This document shows positions 3,374 through 64,000 of a stretch of DNA of 64,000 bases, piece after piece. Origin of the DNA: Promethearchaeati archaeon (GTDB lineage: Archaea; Asgardarchaeota; Heimdallarchaeia; Heimdallarchaeales; Heimdallarchaeaceae). The notes under the pieces are model-generated. The model worked only from the letters and a program-made list of their open reading frames with translations, was not told where the DNA came from and made no database searches. The DNA lies in contig JABLTJ010000006.1 in NCBI GenBank assembly GCA_013166775.1, positions 1-64,000 on the forward strand, in the 5' to 3' direction. The position numbers and the translations under genes are program-made. Position 1 is the first letter of the stretch. Every line of letters starts with the position of its first letter.

Positions 3374-6300
3374 GTGATTCTTATGAATTATATTAATAAT
3401 CTTATACAAAAAACTTTCAAACGAAGAATTGGAAAGAACGTTGGGACTCTGATAGCAATAGGTTTAGCAGTTAGTCTAATGGTAGGTGTACAAATAACAA
3501 TAACAAGTTTTGCTACTGAAGCTTTAGATTTTTTCGTCGATGCAATCGGAGAAAATGATATCATAATCAGTGGTTTTACTTATCCAATAAATACAACTAC
3601 AACATTACCTAATATTACAAATTCGGGTATAGATTATGCTGCATTTAACATTCGAATCACCCAATCTGTAGCTTTATACAATTTAAAATATGGGAGTCTG
3701 GAAAAAGGAGTAAGTTTTGTCGGTTTTGAATTGGACGAGGATCCTGTTTTTGGTAATTTGTACGACCAAAATGGTACTATTTATCGAAGATCGAAATTAG
3801 TAGATCTTTTCAAAAATGAAACCCACGTTATAATGGGAGAAGATTTAGCAGAGAATCTTAATGTAACAGTGGGAACCATATTAAAATTGAGAGTAGGAGA
3901 ATTAAATCAAGCGCAATTCAGGTTTGATTTTAAAACGTTTGATATTAAAGTTGTAGGATTAGTAGCTGAAGAAGAAAAAGGAAAAGAATTAGGTGGTTGG
4001 TCAATTTGGACTAGTATAGATAACATGAGGAAAATAATAGGATTTGCTGATGATGAATGCAGTGAAATAAATATTTCTCTAAGTAGTGACCATGAGAATA
4101 ATCCTATTTCCAATGAAGAAGCCATAGAGGTTGAAGAGCAATTAAATATACTCCTAGATTCTGAAAACTCTGGCTTAATTATTGTTGCTTTTAGAGCCTT
4201 AATTCTGGAGACATCTGACGAAATTCTCAAAGATGTTTTATTAGCCTTTAATTTATTCGGTGCTTTAATCATATTTTCTGGTGTTCTCCTCTTAGTTAAT
4301 ATCCAATTGATTCAGGTAGAAGATAGAGTACAACAGCTCGGGATTTTAAGGGCAATTGGATCAAGAAGAAGAGAAATTGTTAGATTATTTTTAGTTGAAT
4401 CCTTCATCTTAGGTTTCTTAGGTTCTTTTATAGGAATAGGGGGAGGATATACAATGTCAGTCTTTCTAGTTGACAGGATAGGTAAAACCTTCTTTGATGG
4501 TGAAATCGCTCTCCAACCAAATGTTACAGCTGGGGCAGTTGGTTATTCCATAGCTTTAGGATTAATTTTAGCAATAGGAGCTGGTGTTTTTCCAGCGATA
4601 AGAGCTGCTGGTGTAGATGTTATAGAGGTAATAAGGGGCATCAAGAAAATAAAAAGGAAAAAAACTGGAAGTCTTTCACTAGCTATAGGTCTAAGTCTAA
4701 TACTAGCTGGTATTTCAGTACTTGTAGCTCAAAGTTTCATTTATGATTCTATACTTACAAAAGCAGGATGGAATACTGCTATAGAACAATGGGTGTTTAT
4801 GGCAGGAGCCGGCGGGATTCTCTTAGGTATAAGTGTACTCTCAGGTTATTTATTCTCAAGGAAAATTATGGGGAACGGAATAGGATTAACATTCATAATT
4901 CTGTCAATATTAATGCTTCTTTTGTCTCTCCCTCAAACAAAGGGCTTAGAGGACAATAATAAGATATTAATTACATTGGTTGTAATTTTAGCACTGGGTT
5001 CAATTATATGGGTAGGAGTGAATCTTAACGCAGTCACCAATTTCATCAGAGGTGTTCTTTATAGAACTAGAATTAAAAAAGGAGTTTCTCTAATGGCAAG
5101 TAAATATATGACTTCAAAAACAATTAGAAGTACTCTAACATTTGGAATTTTCACTTTAGTATTAACAATGAACATCTTTGCTAGCGTATATCAAGCAACA
5201 TTTGCATATAATACCTTAGAATCTGTGGAATTCTATAGTGGTGGAGCTCCTATTTATATTGAATTAGATTCTCCAATCGCAAATGAATCTTTGGTTAACG
5301 TTGAAAGTGAACTACAAGAAGTAGATGATTCGATAAAACATGTAAAAGGTATAAATTCAACTTTAATCCTTATTACAACGGATGAAGAAGTGGAAGAATT
5401 AGACATACCCACGGACTTCTTTCCAGGGTCTGTAGATCTGATTTACAATAATACATTCAAAAATGGTGATGAATATGTTTTTGATTTCCTATTTGAACAA
5501 TCTTTGGCTCAATTTAATGAAAAATATAGACAAGCAGGTTCGGAAAGATATCAGTTGGAATATAGTCATGAAATTTGGGATTTCTTTTATAATAGAACAA
5601 AATTCAACGAAGAAGGCTATATAGATAATGAAAATGGAATGCCTACTGTTATCTCAACAACTCCCATTCTAAAACCAGGCAATGTATTCAATTTGACAGG
5701 TATTGGTTTTAATACATTTCCAGTTATAGTGCTTGCCTCTTTACAACAATATCCTTTCAGTCTATCGACTATGTTTCCAACCTTATTAATCACGCCCACT
5801 ATTGATTTCTTTCCAAGATTAAATCTTCACTTTGGGCTTTATCCTTCTTATATGAAGTTCTTAGTAAAGACAAATGAGGATTTCAGAGAAGGGAGAAACA
5901 CCATAATAGCAGAAGAAATTGAGACATTCTTTAATGGTAATGAATCAAAACTAGTTCTTGCTGAAGACTTCGTAGCAGCTTCAGCAAACAATGTTTGGGA
6001 TGACATGCTGGAACTAGTAGACTTTCAAGTTAGAACCTTTGATTTCCTCCAATACTTTGTAGGATTTGGTTTAATTGTGGGAGCAATGGGGATGGTAATT
6101 ATAGCGATGAGAAATGTTGCTGAAAGAAGAAGAGAAATAGGTATGAAAAGAGCGCTAGGTTACAAGAAACGACAAATAATAGGAACCATCATGCTAGAAC
6201 TCTTCATCCTAGCTGGATTAGGATTGATTATAGGTTTAATTAATAGCATAATATTGGGATGGGCGTTTGCTAGACTGTACGATTGGTTGCTTCTAGTTCC

Positions 6301-6421
6301 TCCATTAAGGATTCTTCTATATACGGGAATAATGATTGGAATATCGCTTCTCGCTGCAATTTTACCAGGCATTAGAGCTAGTCAAATAACACCAGCAGAA
6401 GCAATAAGGTATGTAGGGTGA
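3374..6421 (+). CDS. MacB/FtsX-family ABC permease (duplicated FtsX domains)
   Basis: Two copies of the R..E/Q.G..RA.G FtsX motif (RVQQLGILRAIG, RRREIGMKRALG); large extracytoplasmic loops. Confidence 0.9.
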   Translation: MILMNYINNLIQKTFKRRIGKNVGTLIAIGLAVSLMVGVQITITSFATEALDFFVDAIGENDIIISGFTYPINTTTTLPNITNSGIDYAAFNIRITQSVALYNLKYGSLEKGVSFVGFELDEDPVFGNLYDQNGTIYRRSKLVDLFKNETHVIMGEDLAENLNVTVGTILKLRVGELNQAQFRFDFKTFDIKVVGLVAEEEKGKELGGWSIWTSIDNMRKIIGFADDECSEINISLSSDHENNPISNEEAIEVEEQLNILLDSENSGLIIVAFRALILETSDEILKDVLLAFNLFGALIIFSGVLLLVNIQLIQVEDRVQQLGILRAIGSRRREIVRLFLVESFILGFLGSFIGIGGGYTMSVFLVDRIGKTFFDGEIALQPNVTAGAVGYSIALGLILAIGAGVFPAIRAAGVDVIEVIRGIKKIKRKKTGSLSLAIGLSLILAGISVLVAQSFIYDSILTKAGWNTAIEQWVFMAGAGGILLGISVLSGYLFSRKIMGNGIGLTFIILSILMLLLSLPQTKGLEDNNKILITLVVILALGSIIWVGVNLNAVTNFIRGVLYRTRIKKGVSLMASKYMTSKTIRSTLTFGIFTLVLTMNIFASVYQATFAYNTLESVEFYSGGAPIYIELDSPIANESLVNVESELQEVDDSIKHVKGINSTLILITTDEEVEELDIPTDFFPGSVDLIYNNTFKNGDEYVFDFLFEQSLAQFNEKYRQAGSERYQLEYSHEIWDFFYNRTKFNEEGYIDNENGMPTVISTTPILKPGNVFNLTGIGFNTFPVIVLASLQQYPFSLSTMFPTLLITPTIDFFPRLNLHFGLYPSYMKFLVKTNEDFREGRNTIIAEEIETFFNGNESKLVLAEDFVAASANNVWDDMLELVDFQVRTFDFLQYFVGFGLIVGAMGMVIIAMRNVAERRREIGMKRALGYKKRQIIGTIMLELFILAGLGLIIGLINSIILGWAFARLYDWLLLVPPLRILLYTGIMIGISLLAAILPGIRASQITPAEAIRYVG

Positions 6422-25320: not shown

Positions 25321-26514
25321 TTATGTCTCTATCTTAGATAGTATCTCTTCAAGAAATTCGATTAAAGTCTTTATTTCCTCTTCTGTGTTATAAAGATGTG
25401 TTGAGATTCTTGCTAAATCATTATATGGTAGTTCATACATGAATAAATGTGCACACAAAGCTCCACTCCTGATAATTATGTTTTTCATATCATCAAGTAT
25501 AATTGCTGTGTCATTTGCATCAAGAATATCACTTGCAAAAGTTGTAATAGGTCCATACTCAACTCCTTCGATTTCGATTAGTTCAATACTAGGTAAATTA
25601 CTAATACCCTTTCTAATCAGTGTACTAAGTTTAAGTTCATGTTCTTGAATTTTTGATAAACCGACATTTGATAAAAGCTCCAAGCTGTTTGTTAAACCCA
25701 AGATGTTTGCTAAATTCAGGATTCCACATTCAAATTTCGAACCAGAGGAAGTTAGATGAAACATTGTCTCTTCAAGAGCTATAATTGAACCACCTCCTAC
25801 TATTAGAGGATTCATTGCTTTTTCAATATCGTTGGATAGAATTTGGAGTGCTAGTCCTTGAGGTCCTAGAGCACCAACACAACTAGCTGTTAAAATGATA
25901 TCTGGTGAAATTCCATTCAATTCAATAGGCTCATGTCCTACTGAATTGCTAATATCTAAAATAAAAGTTGCTTCTATCTCATGACATAATTTTGCAATTT
26001 TCTTCCAATCTCTTTTTATCCCATTGGTAGGAGTCAATGAAGAAAGAATCAGAATATCAGCTTTGGATGTAATCTGCTCGTGTATTTTATCTGTTAGTTC
26101 TTGTTCGTCTTCAAAGTTGAGGTATTGTAGTTCATTCCCAAAAGATTGGTGGGTTTTTATTACTGGAGCAAGAATTGAATGATCTTCAAGGATACTTGTA
26201 ATAATTCTCCTCTTATCAATGGCTTCCAATGAGAACAAAGCATTTGTTAATGCTGTTTCTTTGGATGGTAAAAACGAAACCTGTGTTGTTTCTACTTTGA
26301 AGAAATCTGCTATATTCTTTCTATTATTTTCCAACTTCTTCATGCTCTCCATTGCTTCGTGATGCACACCTCTAATAGCTGCTGAACCTTCTTTCTGATA
26401 GAAGTCAACAATCGTGTCTAAAGAAGAAACGGGCATTTTACCTATGGTTGCTGAGTCAAGGTAGATCTTGTCTTCTTGTAGATTAAAATCATTTCCGAAT
26501 CTTGTAATTGTCAT
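25321..26514 (-). CDS. SufS-like (class V aminotransferase) protein lacking the PLP lysine
   Basis: YLDSAT, GGGSI, RSGALCAH; the SGHK motif reads ASCV. Confidence 0.85.
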   Translation of the reverse strand: MTITRFGNDFNLQEDKIYLDSATIGKMPVSSLDTIVDFYQKEGSAAIRGVHHEAMESMKKLENNRKNIADFFKVETTQVSFLPSKETALTNALFSLEAIDKRRIITSILEDHSILAPVIKTHQSFGNELQYLNFEDEQELTDKIHEQITSKADILILSSLTPTNGIKRDWKKIAKLCHEIEATFILDISNSVGHEPIELNGISPDIILTASCVGALGPQGLALQILSNDIEKAMNPLIVGGGSIIALEETMFHLTSSGSKFECGILNLANILGLTNSLELLSNVGLSKIQEHELKLSTLIRKGISNLPSIELIEIEGVEYGPITTFASDILDANDTAIILDDMKNIIIRSGALCAHLFMYELPYNDLARISTHLYNTEEEIKTLIEFLEEILSKIET

Positions 26515-26736: not shown

Positions 26737-27930
26737 CTAAATCTCTTCCATTATCGATCTAAGGAGTTCGTTGAATTTTCTTATATCCTCTTCAGTATTA
26801 TAGACATGAGTAGAAACTTGTATGAGAGAATCCATCCCAATTTCATCCATAAACAAGTGGGAGCACAAAGCTCCGCTCCTGACTGAGATTTTTCCTAAAT
26901 CTTCTAAAATAATCGCTATATCATGAGCATCTATTTCTTCACTCATAAAAGAGAGGATGGGTCCGTATTCTACTCCATCACTTTCCATTAAACTGATTTT
27001 AGAAGCATCGTTTAATCCATCAATTATATGATCTCTCAATTTTGTTTCATAGGATTGTATTTTTTCAAATCCAATATTTTTGAGTTCTGTTAAACTATTT
27101 TCCAATCCTACAATAGCAGCTAAATTCAATTGACCAGGCTCATATTTGTTACTTCCTGAAAGTAATTTGAATGAATTGGTGTTTAGAGATACTATTGAAC
27201 CACCCCCTACTAAAAATGGTTCAAATGTCTTATCTATATCCTCAGCTAGTATCTGGAATGCTATTCCAGGTGGCCCCAATGCTCCTGAAGAACCAGAAGA
27301 AAGCACTATATCTGGAGAATGCTGAGTAAAATCATATGGTTCATGTCCAACAGAATTACTGATATCTAGAATGAAAGGAACTTCCTTTTCCTCACAAATT
27401 TTTGATATACTTCTCCAATTTCTTTTGACCCCCATACCAAGAGTCAATGATGATAAAACAACTGCTTTTGTTTCAGAGGAAATTCTTTCGTTCAATTTAT
27501 CTACAAGATTTTCTTCATCTTTAAGAGATAGAAAATCAATCTCCAAATTATATAACTCACTGATTTTTATTATTGGTGCAAGAATAGAATGATCTTCCAG
27601 TACACTGGTCAGTATTTTGCTTTTTCCAGATTTATCAAGATAAAATAGGGAATTAAGAATTGCAACTTCTCTTGAGGGTAGGAAGGATAGCTGATTAGGA
27701 GCAATACTGAATACTCTGGATATGGCATTTCTCTTTTCTTCAAGGATTTTCGAAGCTTCAATGGCCAACCTATGAGTACCTCTAATTGTCCCACCGATGT
27801 TGGTTTCATAGAAATCTTGAATCTTTTTTATCGAAGAAGTTGGAAGCCTTCCGAGAGTTGCAGAATCTAAATAGATGTCTTCATCAGGAAGTGAGAACTC
27901 TAAATCGAAATTTTGTCTATTGTTAGACAT
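26737..27930 (-). CDS. SufS-like (class V aminotransferase) protein lacking the PLP lysine, tandem paralogue
   Basis: YLDSAT, RGTH, GGGSI, RSGALCSH; the SGHK motif reads SGSS; probable start at ATG 27930. Confidence 0.85.
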   Translation of the reverse strand: MSNNRQNFDLEFSLPDEDIYLDSATLGRLPTSSIKKIQDFYETNIGGTIRGTHRLAIEASKILEEKRNAISRVFSIAPNQLSFLPSREVAILNSLFYLDKSGKSKILTSVLEDHSILAPIIKISELYNLEIDFLSLKDEENLVDKLNERISSETKAVVLSSLTLGMGVKRNWRSISKICEEKEVPFILDISNSVGHEPYDFTQHSPDIVLSSGSSGALGPPGIAFQILAEDIDKTFEPFLVGGGSIVSLNTNSFKLLSGSNKYEPGQLNLAAIVGLENSLTELKNIGFEKIQSYETKLRDHIIDGLNDASKISLMESDGVEYGPILSFMSEEIDAHDIAIILEDLGKISVRSGALCSHLFMDEIGMDSLIQVSTHVYNTEEDIRKFNELLRSIMEEI

Positions 27931-28016
27931 GTATAATGAGAACAAAACATGTACTATTATAAAATATTTGTTTGAAAACATCATTTTTTTATATTAGGCT
28001 ACTTTTTCGCTGATTA

Positions 28017-47937: not shown

Positions 47938-49173
47938 TTAGAAAATCTTTAGTTCTTTTCCTAGTTTCTCAAAAGTTCCCAAAGCTAAATTGAGATCGTC
48001 TTTGGTTAAACCAGCATTCATCATAACTCTGATTCTTGCTGTTCCTCTTGGTACCATTGGGAACATTATTGGTAAAGCAAATATGCCTTCTTCCATTAAT
48101 CTACTACTCATTTTAGTAGCTACTTCGTTCTCACCACAAATGATAGGCACAATAGCGGTAGGACATTCAGCAGAAGCTGAAGTAATTGGATGGTTGAAGC
48201 CTATATTTACAATCTCGTTCTTGAAGTAATTACAATTATCTAGAAGTTTCTCAACTACAGGAATGAAAAGCTCAGATTTTGGATCAAGAAGTTCTAATGA
48301 ACCAATTGCTGCACCAGCAACACCAGGTGGTTGAGAACCACTAAGTAAGTAAGAACGTCCAGTGTTTCTTAGAAAATTAACTAAATCTTGTGAACCAACA
48401 ATCGCTCCACCTACGACACCCATTGCTTTAGAGTATGTGTTCATTTCAACCTGAACTTTACCTTGAAGACCAAAATGATCAACGATACCTTTACCTTTCT
48501 TATCACGACCAAGAACACCGTCTCCATGAGCATCATCAACAAAGATCATTGCACCGTATTCTTCACTGAGTTTTTGAATCTCATCTAATGGAGACATATC
48601 TCCATCCATTGAGAAAACACCATCAGTGATAACAAGTATTCGCTTTTCTCCATTAGGATCAGCAGCATCTGCTTCTCTTAGTCTGTCTTCTAAGCTTCCC
48701 ATATCAACATGATCATAGATTGTTCTAACTGTTTTTGTTAATCTTACACCATCAATGATAGAACCATGATTTAACTGATCTGAGATTATGAAATCGTCTC
48801 TCCTTACTAAGGGAGGGATAGCACCTTCATTTGCAATAAATCCTGACATCCAAACAATTGAAGCTTCTTGTTCTTTGAAATCAGCATGCTTTCTTTCCCA
48901 CTCTTCATGTATAGCCATATTTCCTGCTATTGCTCTTACTGAACCTGAACCAGCACCATATTTCTCCACAGCTTCTATTGCTCTTTTCCTGAGATGGGGG
49001 TGGTTGCTAAGATTTAGGTAATTATTAGAACATAGCATCAAAAGTTCTTGACCATCAACAACAACTTGTGTTTCCGAAGGAGTTTCAAGTTTTCGATGTA
49101 CCCACTCTCTACCTTCAGCTTGAATTTTTTGATATTCTTCTTTTAAAAATGCGGTTGGATTTCTTTTTACCAT
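47938..49173 (-). CDS. kbl: Glycine C-acetyltransferase / AONS family PLP enzyme
   Basis: SNNYL, GAGSGSVR, NHGSIIDG, DGVFSMDG, DDAHG, TYSKA (Lys intact) and ARIR motifs. Confidence 0.88.
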   Translation of the reverse strand: MVKRNPTAFLKEEYQKIQAEGREWVHRKLETPSETQVVVDGQELLMLCSNNYLNLSNHPHLRKRAIEAVEKYGAGSGSVRAIAGNMAIHEEWERKHADFKEQEASIVWMSGFIANEGAIPPLVRRDDFIISDQLNHGSIIDGVRLTKTVRTIYDHVDMGSLEDRLREADAADPNGEKRILVITDGVFSMDGDMSPLDEIQKLSEEYGAMIFVDDAHGDGVLGRDKKGKGIVDHFGLQGKVQVEMNTYSKAMGVVGGAIVGSQDLVNFLRNTGRSYLLSGSQPPGVAGAAIGSLELLDPKSELFIPVVEKLLDNCNYFKNEIVNIGFNHPITSASAECPTAIVPIICGENEVATKMSSRLMEEGIFALPIMFPMVPRGTARIRVMMNAGLTKDDLNLALGTFEKLGKELKIF

Positions 49174-49329
49174 ATTAGCACCTTTACAGTCTAGCTTCAT
49201 AACTTTTTGTCCCTTTTTATCTTTTATCGTCTGGATTATGCTTTATCCTTTCCAAAAAAAGCTGTTTTTCCCATTTTATCAGCAAAAAGATTTTTATGTG
49301 ATTTTTTTTAACAATTATCAAGCTATAAA

Positions 49330-61697: not shown

Positions 61698-62207
61698 ATG
61701 ATAAATTCTATCAAGATTCTCTATGATCCTAAAGTTGATGAAAAAGAAGTTCAAGCTATTAGTACAGTTATCGAAGAGATTTATCAGATAGAAGTTGCAA
61801 GTAGTACCATTTTCAAAATAAAAAAGGCAGCTTATAATAAAAAAAGAAAGCAATACAATGGTCAAAAGCTGTTAAATGAGTTAATAGATGAAGAAAATCT
61901 CGAGTTTTTTTTCTGGATTATAAAAGATGATATTTATGTACCTGTTATGAATTTTGTTTTTGGATTAGCAACACAGTTTTGTGGTGCAATAGTTTCATTC
62001 TACAGATTAGAATCTCTAGAGATGAAAATCAAAGAAAGTGTACATGAATGTGGACATATCCTTGGTTTAGGGCATTGTACCAATCTCTGTGTGATGCAAT
62101 ATTCACATAATCTCCAAGAAGCAATTGAAAAACCTTCTAGTTTATGTTCAGAATGTGAAAATAAAATAAAGGAAAACAAGAGAAATTTTGAACCAAACAA
62201 AGATTAA
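61698..62207 (+). CDS. amzA: Archaemetzincin (M54 zinc metalloprotease)
   Basis: HECGHILGLGHC, CVM Met-turn, LCSEC and NFVFG motifs. Confidence 0.9.
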   Translation: MINSIKILYDPKVDEKEVQAISTVIEEIYQIEVASSTIFKIKKAAYNKKRKQYNGQKLLNELIDEENLEFFFWIIKDDIYVPVMNFVFGLATQFCGAIVSFYRLESLEMKIKESVHECGHILGLGHCTNLCVMQYSHNLQEAIEKPSSLCSECENKIKENKRNFEPNKD

Positions 62208-62232: not shown

Positions 62233-62508
62233 ATGAAGTCAGGTGTCAATTGGTTGCATCAACGATTTGTTAGCTCCATAGTAGAAAGTTGTACAAAAGA
62301 CCAAAGCTATGTAATCATGTTAAAATGGGATGCAATAAATGAAGTTCATACGAAACTAAAACAGAAGTGTGAACTAGTACAACAAATAGGTGGTATTATA
62401 GAGAAATACCAATATAAGGATTTAAAAATATCCTTCTATAAAACAGGAAAACTGTTGCTAACAAATGTGAATCATATAGATGTTTTGCTGAAAGAACTAT
62501 TCAAGTGA
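62233..62508 (+). CDS. Small hypothetical protein co-transcribed with iscS-iscU
   Basis: Overlaps the iscS start (GTGA); single Cys (ESCT) and ISFYKTGKLLL. Confidence 0.6.
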   Translation: MKSGVNWLHQRFVSSIVESCTKDQSYVIMLKWDAINEVHTKLKQKCELVQQIGGIIEKYQYKDLKISFYKTGKLLLTNVNHIDVLLKELFK

Positions 62509-63725
62509 TAACAATGTCTAACGTTGAAGATTTATTAAAACAACACGGAAAGGCAATCAAAGAAGTATATCTAGATTGGGAGAATGGTACAAGAATAGAA
62601 GAAGAAGTGCTTGAAGCAATGAAACCATTTTATTTAGAAAAACAATTTGGCAATCCTGCAATTACGCATAGAGTTGGTTGGGAGACGTATGATTTTTATG
62701 TAAAAGCAAAAACAACTCTAGCAAAACCTCTGAATGTTCAACCACAATCCATCGCGTTAACTCATAGCTTCACTGAATCCAATAATCTAGCTATCAAAGG
62801 TTTAGCGAAGATGAATAAAAAAAGAAAGAAAATTATTGTCTCTGAAGTAGAACATCTTAGTGTTATTCATACTGCCAAATCTATGTTCAGTGATGACTAC
62901 AAAGTAGTGATTTTACCTGTTTCAAATGATGGAACTGTGAATGTCGACATGCTTCAAGAGGAACTAGATAGTGAAACTTTGCTAGTTAGTTTACAATCTA
63001 TCAATCATGAAATTGGGACAATACAACCGGTAAGAGAAGCTTTGGAAATTGTAAAAGACTTCGATGAGAAAATATTCTTTCATACTGATGCTACTTCGGC
63101 TTTTGGAAGAATTCCTCTAGATCTGAGTAATTTAGATGTTGATTTAGCTTCCTTCAGTAGTAATAGAATACTTGGTCCAAAAGGGATTGCTGGGTTGTAT
63201 ATCAAGGAAGGGATAAAACTAAAATCAATTTATGAAGGGCAACTCAGTGTTGAAACTCTCTCACCAGATGTGGAAAATCCTGCATTACTTGCTGGTTTTG
63301 CGAAAGCAGTGGAATTGCAATTTAAGCAGTTTGAAGAAATAAGAGAACATACAATTAAACTTAGGGATAAATTGATGTATGGGTTGCATACAAGTATTGA
63401 GCGAACTGATATTAATGGTCCTGCAGGAAATAGAAGAGCACCTGACAATGTTAACATAAGTTTCCTTGGATGCGAAGGTGAAGCGTTAACAGTCGATTCT
63501 TCAATGAACGGCATTTATGCTTCAAGTGGAAGTGCTTGCACTAGTAGAGTATTAATGCCAAGTCATATACTTACAGCAATTGGTCGGAAACCTGAGGAAG
63601 CTCATGGAAGTTTATTGATGAAAGTCAATAGATTAAACACTGAAGAAGAAATAGATTACGTATTAGAAAAAATGCCTAAAATTATTGAGAGAATAAGATC
63701 AATAACGGGTGGAATACAAATTTAG
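62505..63725 (+). CDS. iscS: IscS/NifS-like protein with Lys->Arg at the PLP site
   Basis: FGNP, TESNN, EH.SV, NHEIGTIQP, SSNRILGPKG and SGSACTS; immediately upstream of iscU. Confidence 0.88.
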   Translation: MITMSNVEDLLKQHGKAIKEVYLDWENGTRIEEEVLEAMKPFYLEKQFGNPAITHRVGWETYDFYVKAKTTLAKPLNVQPQSIALTHSFTESNNLAIKGLAKMNKKRKKIIVSEVEHLSVIHTAKSMFSDDYKVVILPVSNDGTVNVDMLQEELDSETLLVSLQSINHEIGTIQPVREALEIVKDFDEKIFFHTDATSAFGRIPLDLSNLDVDLASFSSNRILGPKGIAGLYIKEGIKLKSIYEGQLSVETLSPDVENPALLAGFAKAVELQFKQFEEIREHTIKLRDKLMYGLHTSIERTDINGPAGNRRAPDNVNISFLGCEGEALTVDSSMNGIYASSGSACTSRVLMPSHILTAIGRKPEEAHGSLLMKVNRLNTEEEIDYVLEKMPKIIERIRSITGGIQI

Positions 63726-63737
63726 AAGGAAAAGAAA

Positions 63738-64000
63738 ATGTCAAGTAGAATACCATTACCATATGCTCCAAGAGTCCTTGAGTTATTTCAAAATCCACAA
63801 AATTTAGGAAGAATGGAAAATGCTACTATTACTTCATCAGCTGGAAGTCCAGCTTGTGGTGATATGATCGCATTTTATCTTTTAATTGATGAAAAAAGTG
63901 AAGTAATAACTAAATCAAGCTTTGAAAGCTATGGTTGCGCAAGCAATATCGCAGCTGCAAGTCAACTAACAATTATGATAGAAAATAAAACTCTAGAGGA
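63738..64000 (+). CDS. iscU: IscU/NifU-N Fe-S scaffold protein (runs off window end)
   Basis: MSSRIPLPYAPRVLELFQNPQNLG...GSPACGDMI...YGCASNIAAAS; not in the ORF track because it is truncated. Confidence 0.92.
   Translation, partial: MSSRIPLPYAPRVLELFQNPQNLGRMENATITSSAGSPACGDMIAFYLLIDEKSEVITKSSFESYGCASNIAAASQLTIMIENKTLE

Follow-up and report, generated by a model that had tools for sequence, protein, structure and literature searches.

A window of 64,000 nucleotides (positions 1 to 64,000 of contig JABLTJ010000006.1) from a Heimdallarchaeaceae genome (GCA_013166775.1) was analyzed, and its last part, positions 62233-64000 of the forward strand, was found to hold three tightly packed open reading frames (ORFs). 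They encode a small protein of 84 amino acids (aa) with a single invariant cysteine, an IscS-like class V protein, and the scaffold protein IscU, and together they form a tightly coupled three-gene unit of the archaeal minimal ISC (iron-sulfur cluster; MIS) type. We consider it probable, at roughly 0.6, that this unit consists of a non-catalytic IscS, IscU, and the small protein, and that it receives its sulfur from outside the IscS active site.

According to the proposed mechanism, IscS would no longer cleave cysteine and would act as a structural partner of IscU, as in the (IscS-IscU)2 assembly of Archaeoglobus fulgidus; sulfur would therefore have to enter outside the IscS active site. It may arrive as free sulfide or as a persulfide from a conserved orphan SufS encoded elsewhere in the genome. 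By analogy with A. fulgidus, the [2Fe-2S] cluster that forms on Cys40, Cys67, and Cys110 of IscU could have Cys345 of IscS as its fourth ligand and/or as its sulfur relay. Delivery of the sulfur would fall to an adaptor or carrier, for which the 84-aa single-cysteine protein is the best candidate.

Active site and evolution of the IscS-like protein

The IscS-like protein matched Pfam family PF00266 (Aminotran_5) at 1.7e-49, over model positions 1-370 of 371. Full-length matches to solved structures covered residues 19-400 (1e-80 to 3e-63 for canonical IscS/NifS), with A. fulgidus IscS as the best match (4eb5/4r5f, 2.7e-83). The protein thus has the class V aminotransferase fold, the loop cysteine Cys345, and, by homology, a dimer-type architecture. 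A residue-by-residue comparison with a canonical solved IscS (9wep) demonstrated that the active site is strongly altered. Arg221, encoded by AGA, lies in SFSSNRILGPKG, the canonical counterpart of which is SFSAHKxYGPKG, and Asn220 stands where a histidine precedes the Schiff-base lysine, so that SAHK has become SSNR. In the segment HTDATSAF, Ser198 replaces the glutamine of DAVQ, the aspartate of that motif being kept. The position of the substrate arginine (Arg354 in E. coli IscS) is occupied by Leu371 (HGSLLMK; GSVRFS in 9wep versus GSLLMK). In addition, the phosphate loop RAGTEN of 9wep reads SPDVEN, and DHAATT reads DWENGT.

An earlier reading made from the sequence alone (the sequence-only reading) had named the changes of SAHK to SSNR, of DAVQ to DATS, and of HGSLRFS to HGSLLMK, together with an unchanged GSACTS. 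All four were recovered here from the codons, the translation, and the alignment; the erosion went further than had been described, affecting five motifs in all. Cys345 is intact in SSGSACTS. This mobile-loop cysteine is the persulfide carrier in active IscS and a cluster ligand in A. fulgidus IscS. Examined as a type I desulfurase, the protein lacks the Schiff-base lysine, the substrate arginine, and the canonical pocket and phosphate loop for pyridoxal 5'-phosphate (PLP). Its scores were below every desulfurase equivalog cut-off of NCBIfam (353.5 versus 530.75 for NifS; 290.3 versus 643.2 for IscS).

The residue at the lysine position was counted in the query and 120 homologues among the matches listed, and these 121 sequences carried K in 94, R in 24, H in two, and S in one. 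All states other than K were found within the Heimdall clade, at 60-100% identity to the query; the 36 proteins of this clade have K, R, H, or S. Among the species representatives, those of genus g1, to which the window genome belongs, mostly carried R and in a few cases K, those of g2, g3, and g4 carried K, and g5, which comprises two single-contig genomes, showed one R and one K. The maximum-likelihood tree of 39 close orthologues called for at least six changes between K and R, at least three of them forced by well-supported branches, and for nine changes when all states were counted. An error of sequencing or assembly at Arg221 was ruled out, since 14 sequences make up the database cluster of the protein and R recurs in many independent relatives (24 of the 121 sequences).

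Alignment A3 has many invariant or nearly invariant positions, the Cys loop SSGSAC[TS]SR.L.PSH among them, which indicates that IscS is under purifying selection. A decaying pseudogene was ruled out as well: the reading frame of iscS is unbroken in about 30 genomes, and many of its positions do not vary. The orphan SufS provided an internal control. Its orthologues, present in 28 of the 31 genomes of the family, showed zero change at HK, EHH, DxAQ, RxGxxC, and the C-terminal arginine. A Schiff-base lysine does not drift in the way the lysine position of the IscS orthologues does. The drift at this position, combined with an invariant loop cysteine, therefore suggests that IscS is selected for something other than lysine chemistry. 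With five motifs eroded and a lysine position that varies among K, R, H, and S in orthologues 60-91% identical, PLP desulfurase activity is very improbable for this protein, and we hold with considerable confidence that it is not a lysine-dependent desulfurase.

A scan of archaeal species genomes for IscS of the window type yielded 80 loci, from Heimdallarchaeota, Bathyarchaeia, Methanomethylicia, Culexmicrobium, Nezha-, Brock-, and Aigarchaeota, Desulfurococcales, Methanoregula, and others. The substrate-arginine position read xL[MF]K or ILFR in 77 of them, the mobile-loop cysteine was present in 79, and iscU was adjacent in 79. The canonical lysine was kept in 68 loci, including most clade members outside Heimdallarchaeaceae, and many Bathyarchaeia have the catalytic histidine replaced by proline. 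The loss of the substrate arginine is, by this comparison, older and wider than that of the lysine.

Loci of other Asgard families were excised from 16 genomes. The A. fulgidus signature SSND (lysine replaced by aspartate, no arginine) was found in eight families (f8, f10, f13, f16, f17, f19, f22, and f26), in seven of which (all except f17) the excised stretch also gave an iscU match. Family f13 carries a second, canonical copy (SAHK/SGHK, DAVQ, GSLR). Identity of the SSND proteins to the window IscS is just 34-40%, and their tails read HGSLQ/LL... rather than xLMK. Since they form another subclade, the lysine loss in Heimdallarchaeaceae is independent.

The small single-cysteine protein, IscU, and gene organization

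The small gene lies directly 5' of iscS in every locus of the family that extends that far, across five genera and at 40-70% identity. A word-based homologue search retrieved only 8 near-identical proteins; when 1.84 billion representative proteins were searched with a profile, no more than 54 clusters emerged, with members of 63-113 aa. Cys13 was invariant in all 48 aligned members, at a mean column identity of 34%. Homologues were found beside iscS-iscU in Asgardarchaeia, Baldrarchaeia, Bathyarchaeia, and other groups (hhalign probability 97.6-98.5%). Their place varied: in Asgardarchaeia and a Logan contig the gene lies upstream, in Baldrarchaeia it follows iscU, and in Bathyarchaeia it comes behind both iscU and an extra aminotransferase gene. 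Across the 80 species loci, the gene was detected no more than 2.5 kb from IscS in 48 (40 downstream, 5 upstream, and 3 on the other strand). In a sample of 201 Asgard genomes, strong matches were confined to families f1, f11, f12, and f23, four of the five families (the fifth being f20) with an IscS at least 45% identical to that of the window. Conservation of this linkage despite the shuffled gene order points to a functional tie, and the small protein probably works with IscS-IscU. Its occurrence beside them in 48 of the 80 loci, at varying positions, makes it a candidate third component; that it carries the sulfur is a tentative suggestion.

The window copy had no Pfam or NCBIfam family match and no significant sequence match, and no description of the protein was found in the literature. 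Pfam TBP matched 13 of the 48 members and DUF3378 matched six; the window copy was matched by neither. The AlphaFold2 model (mean pLDDT, the per-residue confidence score, 89.7) has a beta-beta-alpha-beta4-alpha layout, and Cys13 opens its least confident block (residues 11-20). The best Foldseek match of the model was weak (3vn5; E 0.11, probability 0.97, TM 0.52). VIA Z values of 6-7 to CYTH, TBP, Med18, and the RNase H3 N-domain (6.2-6.3 to 3vn5 and archaeal TBP) are within the range of common arrangements. The fold comparisons returned generic TBP-like or CYTH-like matches and no hint of a function.

An ATG start at 62233 would give the small protein 91 aa. In relatives, the codon ahead of Leu8 of this longer ORF is often a stop, the TTG or GTG start follows an AGGTG Shine-Dalgarno-like motif by 8-9 nucleotides (nt), and the length of the product is 84 aa throughout; the start is therefore more likely TTG 62254.

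The third gene, iscU, ends at 64235, beyond the window, and the contig contains it in full (165 aa). Its product matched NifU_N (PF01592) with 120.6 bits, the sole NifU_N match in the genome, and A. fulgidus IscU (4eb5_C, 2.5e-29) was its best match in the PDB. All cluster ligands are present and invariant in alignment A4: Cys40, Asp42, Cys67, and the pair His109-Cys110. The protein also has a conserved tail at residues of about 130-165 (64125-64235), P.WLP..LTK[DE]EK.ALEEE.LA..L.KKY, which is beyond the reach of the shorter solved IscU proteins (124-143 aa) and is kept from Heimdallarchaeaceae to Bathyarchaeia.

The features of the operon are listed in Table 1. The sequence-only reading had placed iscS between a small cysteine-containing ORF and iscU, and the ORF map agreed. 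The stop codon of the small gene (TGA 62506-62508) precedes the iscS ATG by 5 nt, and 12 nt separate iscS from iscU; an alternative GTG start at 62505 would extend IscS to 406 aa. HscAB, ferredoxin, and IscA genes do not accompany iscS-iscU in the operon. Close homologues of the window IscS bear the names Heimdallarchaeota or Heimdallarchaeaceae.

Table 1. Features of the three-gene unit and its upstream neighbour in the window.
Feature	Position	Strand	Basis
Small gene, 84 aa, predicted TBP-like fold, one invariant Cys (Cys13, TGT 62290-62292)	62254..62508	+	Start pattern in relatives, synteny, alignments A1/A2
IscS-like (MisS-like) class V protein, 403 aa from ATG 62514	62514..63725	+	Pfam Aminotran_5
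AGA, Arg221 at the PLP Schiff-base lysine position	63165..63167	+	Codon read directly
TGC, Cys345, mobile-loop cysteine	63537..63539	+	Codon read; alignment A3
TTG, Leu371 at the substrate-carboxylate arginine position	63615..63617	+	Alignment to 9wep
iscU (misU), N-terminal 87 codons within the window	63738..64000	+	Pfam NifU_N 5.5e-23
Archaemetzincin-like gene (Peptidase_M54), upstream neighbour	61698..62207	+	Pfam 1.9e-15

The archaemetzincin gene ends 46 nt before the TTG start of the small gene; it lies directly 5' of that gene in most g1 loci and in g4, and farther upstream in g2. Unusual arrangements were observed at two other loci. In the Bathyarchaeia genome GCA_038880555.1, a second aminotransferase-fold gene (412 aa; L076:4723-5961 (+)) lies between iscU and the small gene, and the IscS of this locus reads EIEPLS (catalytic histidine replaced by proline) and SSYK. 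The locus of GCA_001399805.1 (L078:2528-3342 (+) and 4827-6342 (-)) is degenerate: what it encodes is an Aminotran_5 fragment of 52 aa and a product of 113 aa in which a C-terminal remnant of IscU is fused to the small protein. An Aminotran_5 protein of 886 aa that contains an intein (PF14890) is encoded nearby.

Sulfur supply and alternative explanations

The search of the whole genome with PF00266 gave 21 matches. The best of them (335.7 bits) was a 421-aa type II SufS at G000:C51:13475-14740 (-), which is L001:1462-2727 (-). It aligned with a solved SufS (1t3i) at 1.5e-81 with every catalytic residue in place, and its motifs read LSVHK, LEHH, DEAQ, RSGNMCVHP, and VRAS. In the 28 family genomes that have it, this protein is kept at 70-96% identity with invariant catalytic residues. 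The gene is located outside any suf operon and adjoins that of an NAD-dependent epimerase; no match to SufE or SufU was found in the genome. The same contig also encodes a Rab/Ras-like small GTPase (C51:19289-19858 (-); GDPGVGKSS ... DIGGQERF), of a kind reported from Asgard archaea. Three TusA homologues and one Mrp/ApbC homologue were detected as well. On account of the conserved canonical SufS and the TusA homologues, the predicted gene content suggests that the cell can very probably make persulfide from cysteine.

Neither the A-type carrier (PF01521) nor SufB/SufD (PF01458) gave a match in this genome, the completeness of which is 88.7%. SufB/SufD was present in 4 of 24 congeners in g1 and in genera g2, g4, and g5. 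Since it was missing from the window genome and from most of its congeners, the IscS-IscU operon is probably the main system of de novo Fe-S assembly in this cell, and likewise in the greater part of the genus, if the absence of SufB is real. The four g1 genomes with a match (G012, G014, G016, and G027; L043-L046) have a 415-426-aa form. In the other genera the form is SmsB-like and 316 aa long, which suggests a separate origin.

Other class V paralogues were also observed. Two tandem SufS-like genes in the window (25321-26514 (-) and 26737-27984 (-)) matched TIGR01979 at 1.6e-57 and 3.2e-53, far under the cut-off. They have no lysine in the S-x-H-K segment (ASCVGALGP and SGSSGALGP) and keep the loop cysteine (RSGALC); with a gapless anchor on GP, glycine occupies the lysine position in both. 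Two paralogues elsewhere in the genome (G000:C22:36154-37455 (-) and G000:C36:2518-3846 (+)) have the lysine (SGYK) and no loop cysteine (RSGHYYS). The sequence-only reading had stated that all three desulfurase homologues lack the lysine, by substitution with R, V, and S, and that Kbl keeps its PLP lysine. Kbl (47938-49200 (-)) does read TYSK, and the first statement holds within the window, with arginine in IscS. However, with the gapless anchor the two SufS-like proteins show glycine where that reading gave valine and serine, and genome-wide the canonical SufS is a fourth homologue with a complete active site. A genome-wide search for an enzyme with an intact S.HK motif and a catalytic cysteine, which that reading had asked for, thus returned one.

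This bears directly on the wider proposal of that reading, which taken in full describes a cell without any working cysteine desulfurase that would build all clusters from environmental sulfide with dead IscS and SufS folds as co-ligands. The lack of the lysine in all three window homologues is in line with it, and so is the finding that archaeal minimal systems can use sulfide (PMC12192291, PMC13066941), as Methanococcus does (PMC7585200). The part of the proposal that concerns an A. fulgidus-like IscS beside a complete IscU was retained in our analysis. As a claim for the whole organism, however, it meets a canonical SufS that is invariant in 28 of 31 family genomes, and three TusA homologues that point to persulfide trafficking, and we regard it as quite improbable. 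Still less probable is a second possibility, that the Arg221 protein remains a desulfurase or related lyase with a rearranged site, in which Lys373 would bind the substrate or form the Schiff base and PLP would be held non-covalently. The clade-wide invariance of Lys373 in xLMK and the 68 of 80 loci with a canonical lysine, mostly outside Heimdallarchaeaceae, would suit such an enzyme. Against it, the switches of the canonical lysine position among K, R, H, and S came without a visible compensating pattern, the RSGT phosphate loop and the glutamine of DAxQ are lost too, Bathyarchaeial members exchange the catalytic histidine for proline, and restoring the lysine in A. fulgidus (D199K) left IscS inactive (PMC8918507).

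The small protein could also be a TBP-like, nucleic-acid-binding regulator of the operon, comparable to IscR, in which case IscS and IscU would act as a pair, like those of A. fulgidus. Its structure and sequence place it near TBP and near the duplex-binding N-domain of RNase HIII, and the gene is on the opposite strand in 3 of the 48 loci. However, the protein is predicted to be a single half-TBP domain with no helix-turn-helix or second repeat, its gene is translationally coupled to iscS across the 5-nt gap, and a cysteine invariant in 48 of 48 members stands out against 34% mean column identity. A regulator is therefore unlikely in our assessment.

Several points weigh against a non-catalytic IscS that works with IscU and the small protein on sulfur from elsewhere. 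The loss of activity is deduced from sequence, and the PLP-pocket residues His117, Asp195, Ser218, and Thr90 are still present. Lys373, invariant and two residues past the lost arginine, makes a rearranged site conceivable. The absence of SufB is not proven at this genome completeness, and the sulfur may come either from sulfide or from the SufS persulfide. Contact of the small protein with IscS or IscU, and sulfur on Cys13, are putative, and the predicted TBP-like fold would suit a nucleic-acid-binding regulator too. It is possible, though doubtful at present, that the small protein is a third core MIS component that delivers sulfur or completes the ligand sphere, thereby allowing MisS to drop desulfurase chemistry.

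Significance and comparison with known systems

Fe-S cluster assembly is essential, and the literature examined treats the archaeal MIS as a desulfurase plus a scaffold. Within a large archaeal IscS clade without the substrate arginine, the Heimdallarchaeaceae lineage lets the lysine drift freely, and this drift argues, on comparative grounds, that the IscS fold is retained there for a purpose other than cysteine cleavage. The presence of the K-to-D change in eight other Asgard families, together with the independent loss in the window lineage, suggests that the A. fulgidus case may recur and is not an oddity. The single-cysteine partner offers a concrete candidate route by which sulfur could reach IscU without IscS chemistry. 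If the proposed role of the small protein is correct, a three-protein Fe-S assembly without cysteine cleavage by its own IscS would exist across Asgard archaea, Bathyarchaeia, and other archaea, and most of this Heimdallarchaeaceae genus would have no other scaffold system. The eukaryotic host lineage has some of its closest known relatives in Heimdallarchaeia; the Fe-S machinery of these archaea therefore bears on the state of that lineage before the mitochondrial ISC system.

Nothing relevant was found in the literature on lysine loss in MisS/MisU or on a third MIS component. The independent loss of the lysine by drift in a different subclade and the deeper erosion of the site are apparently new, as are the seeming absence of SufB from most congeners and the conserved third gene; none is described in the literature found.

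Canonical IscS/NifS proteins (E. coli 1p3w/3lvm; the 9wep series) share with the window IscS the full-length fold and the GSAC loop, whereas the five catalytic and PLP motifs are lost in the window protein. For the small protein, TBP-like single domains (the RNase HIII N-domain, DUF3378, and the TBP repeat) have a layout similar to that of the model, with weak structural matches. Unlike them, it stands alone, is always tied to iscS-iscU, and has the invariant cysteine, which to our knowledge is absent from TBP-like domains.

The closest solved counterpart of both window proteins is the IscS-IscU system of A. fulgidus (4eb5, 4eb7, and 4hvk; D199K variant 4r5f). A. fulgidus IscS has Asp199 in place of the lysine, binds pyridoxamine 5'-phosphate, shows no desulfurase activity, and contributes a cysteine as a ligand of the [2Fe-2S] cluster on IscU (PMC8918507, PMC7585200, PMC13066941); the sequence-only reading had described this inactive, cluster-ligating IscS correctly (PMC8918507, PMC13066941). 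Both IscS proteins lack the Schiff-base lysine, the substrate arginine, and the glutamine of DAxQ, share SSN- and the loop cysteine, and are encoded next to an IscU with three cysteines, an aspartate, and a histidine. However, the lysine position is aspartate in A. fulgidus and arginine in the window IscS (K, H, or S in its relatives), which belongs to a subclade distinct from the SSND type, and the RSGS/T phosphate loop is kept in the former and lost in the latter. In addition, the window operon, unlike that of A. fulgidus, includes the 84-aa protein and an IscU tail of roughly 35 residues.

The catalytic lysine was also reported missing from IscS1 of Methanosarcina acetivorans, for which an A. 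fulgidus-like role was suggested (PMC7585200). With these two precedents, the combination of a lysine-less IscS and IscU is of a known kind. IscS1, likened here by its description, occurs beside an active IscS2-IscU2 and SufBC, whereas one IscS-IscU pair and no SufB were found in the window genome. MIS has been described as a cysteine desulfurase plus a scaffold (PMC12192291). The window operon resembles this MisS-MisU system as an archaeal iscS-iscU pair without chaperones, ferredoxin, or an A-type carrier, but the desulfurase residues are missing from its MisS, and the pair is accompanied by a conserved third gene.

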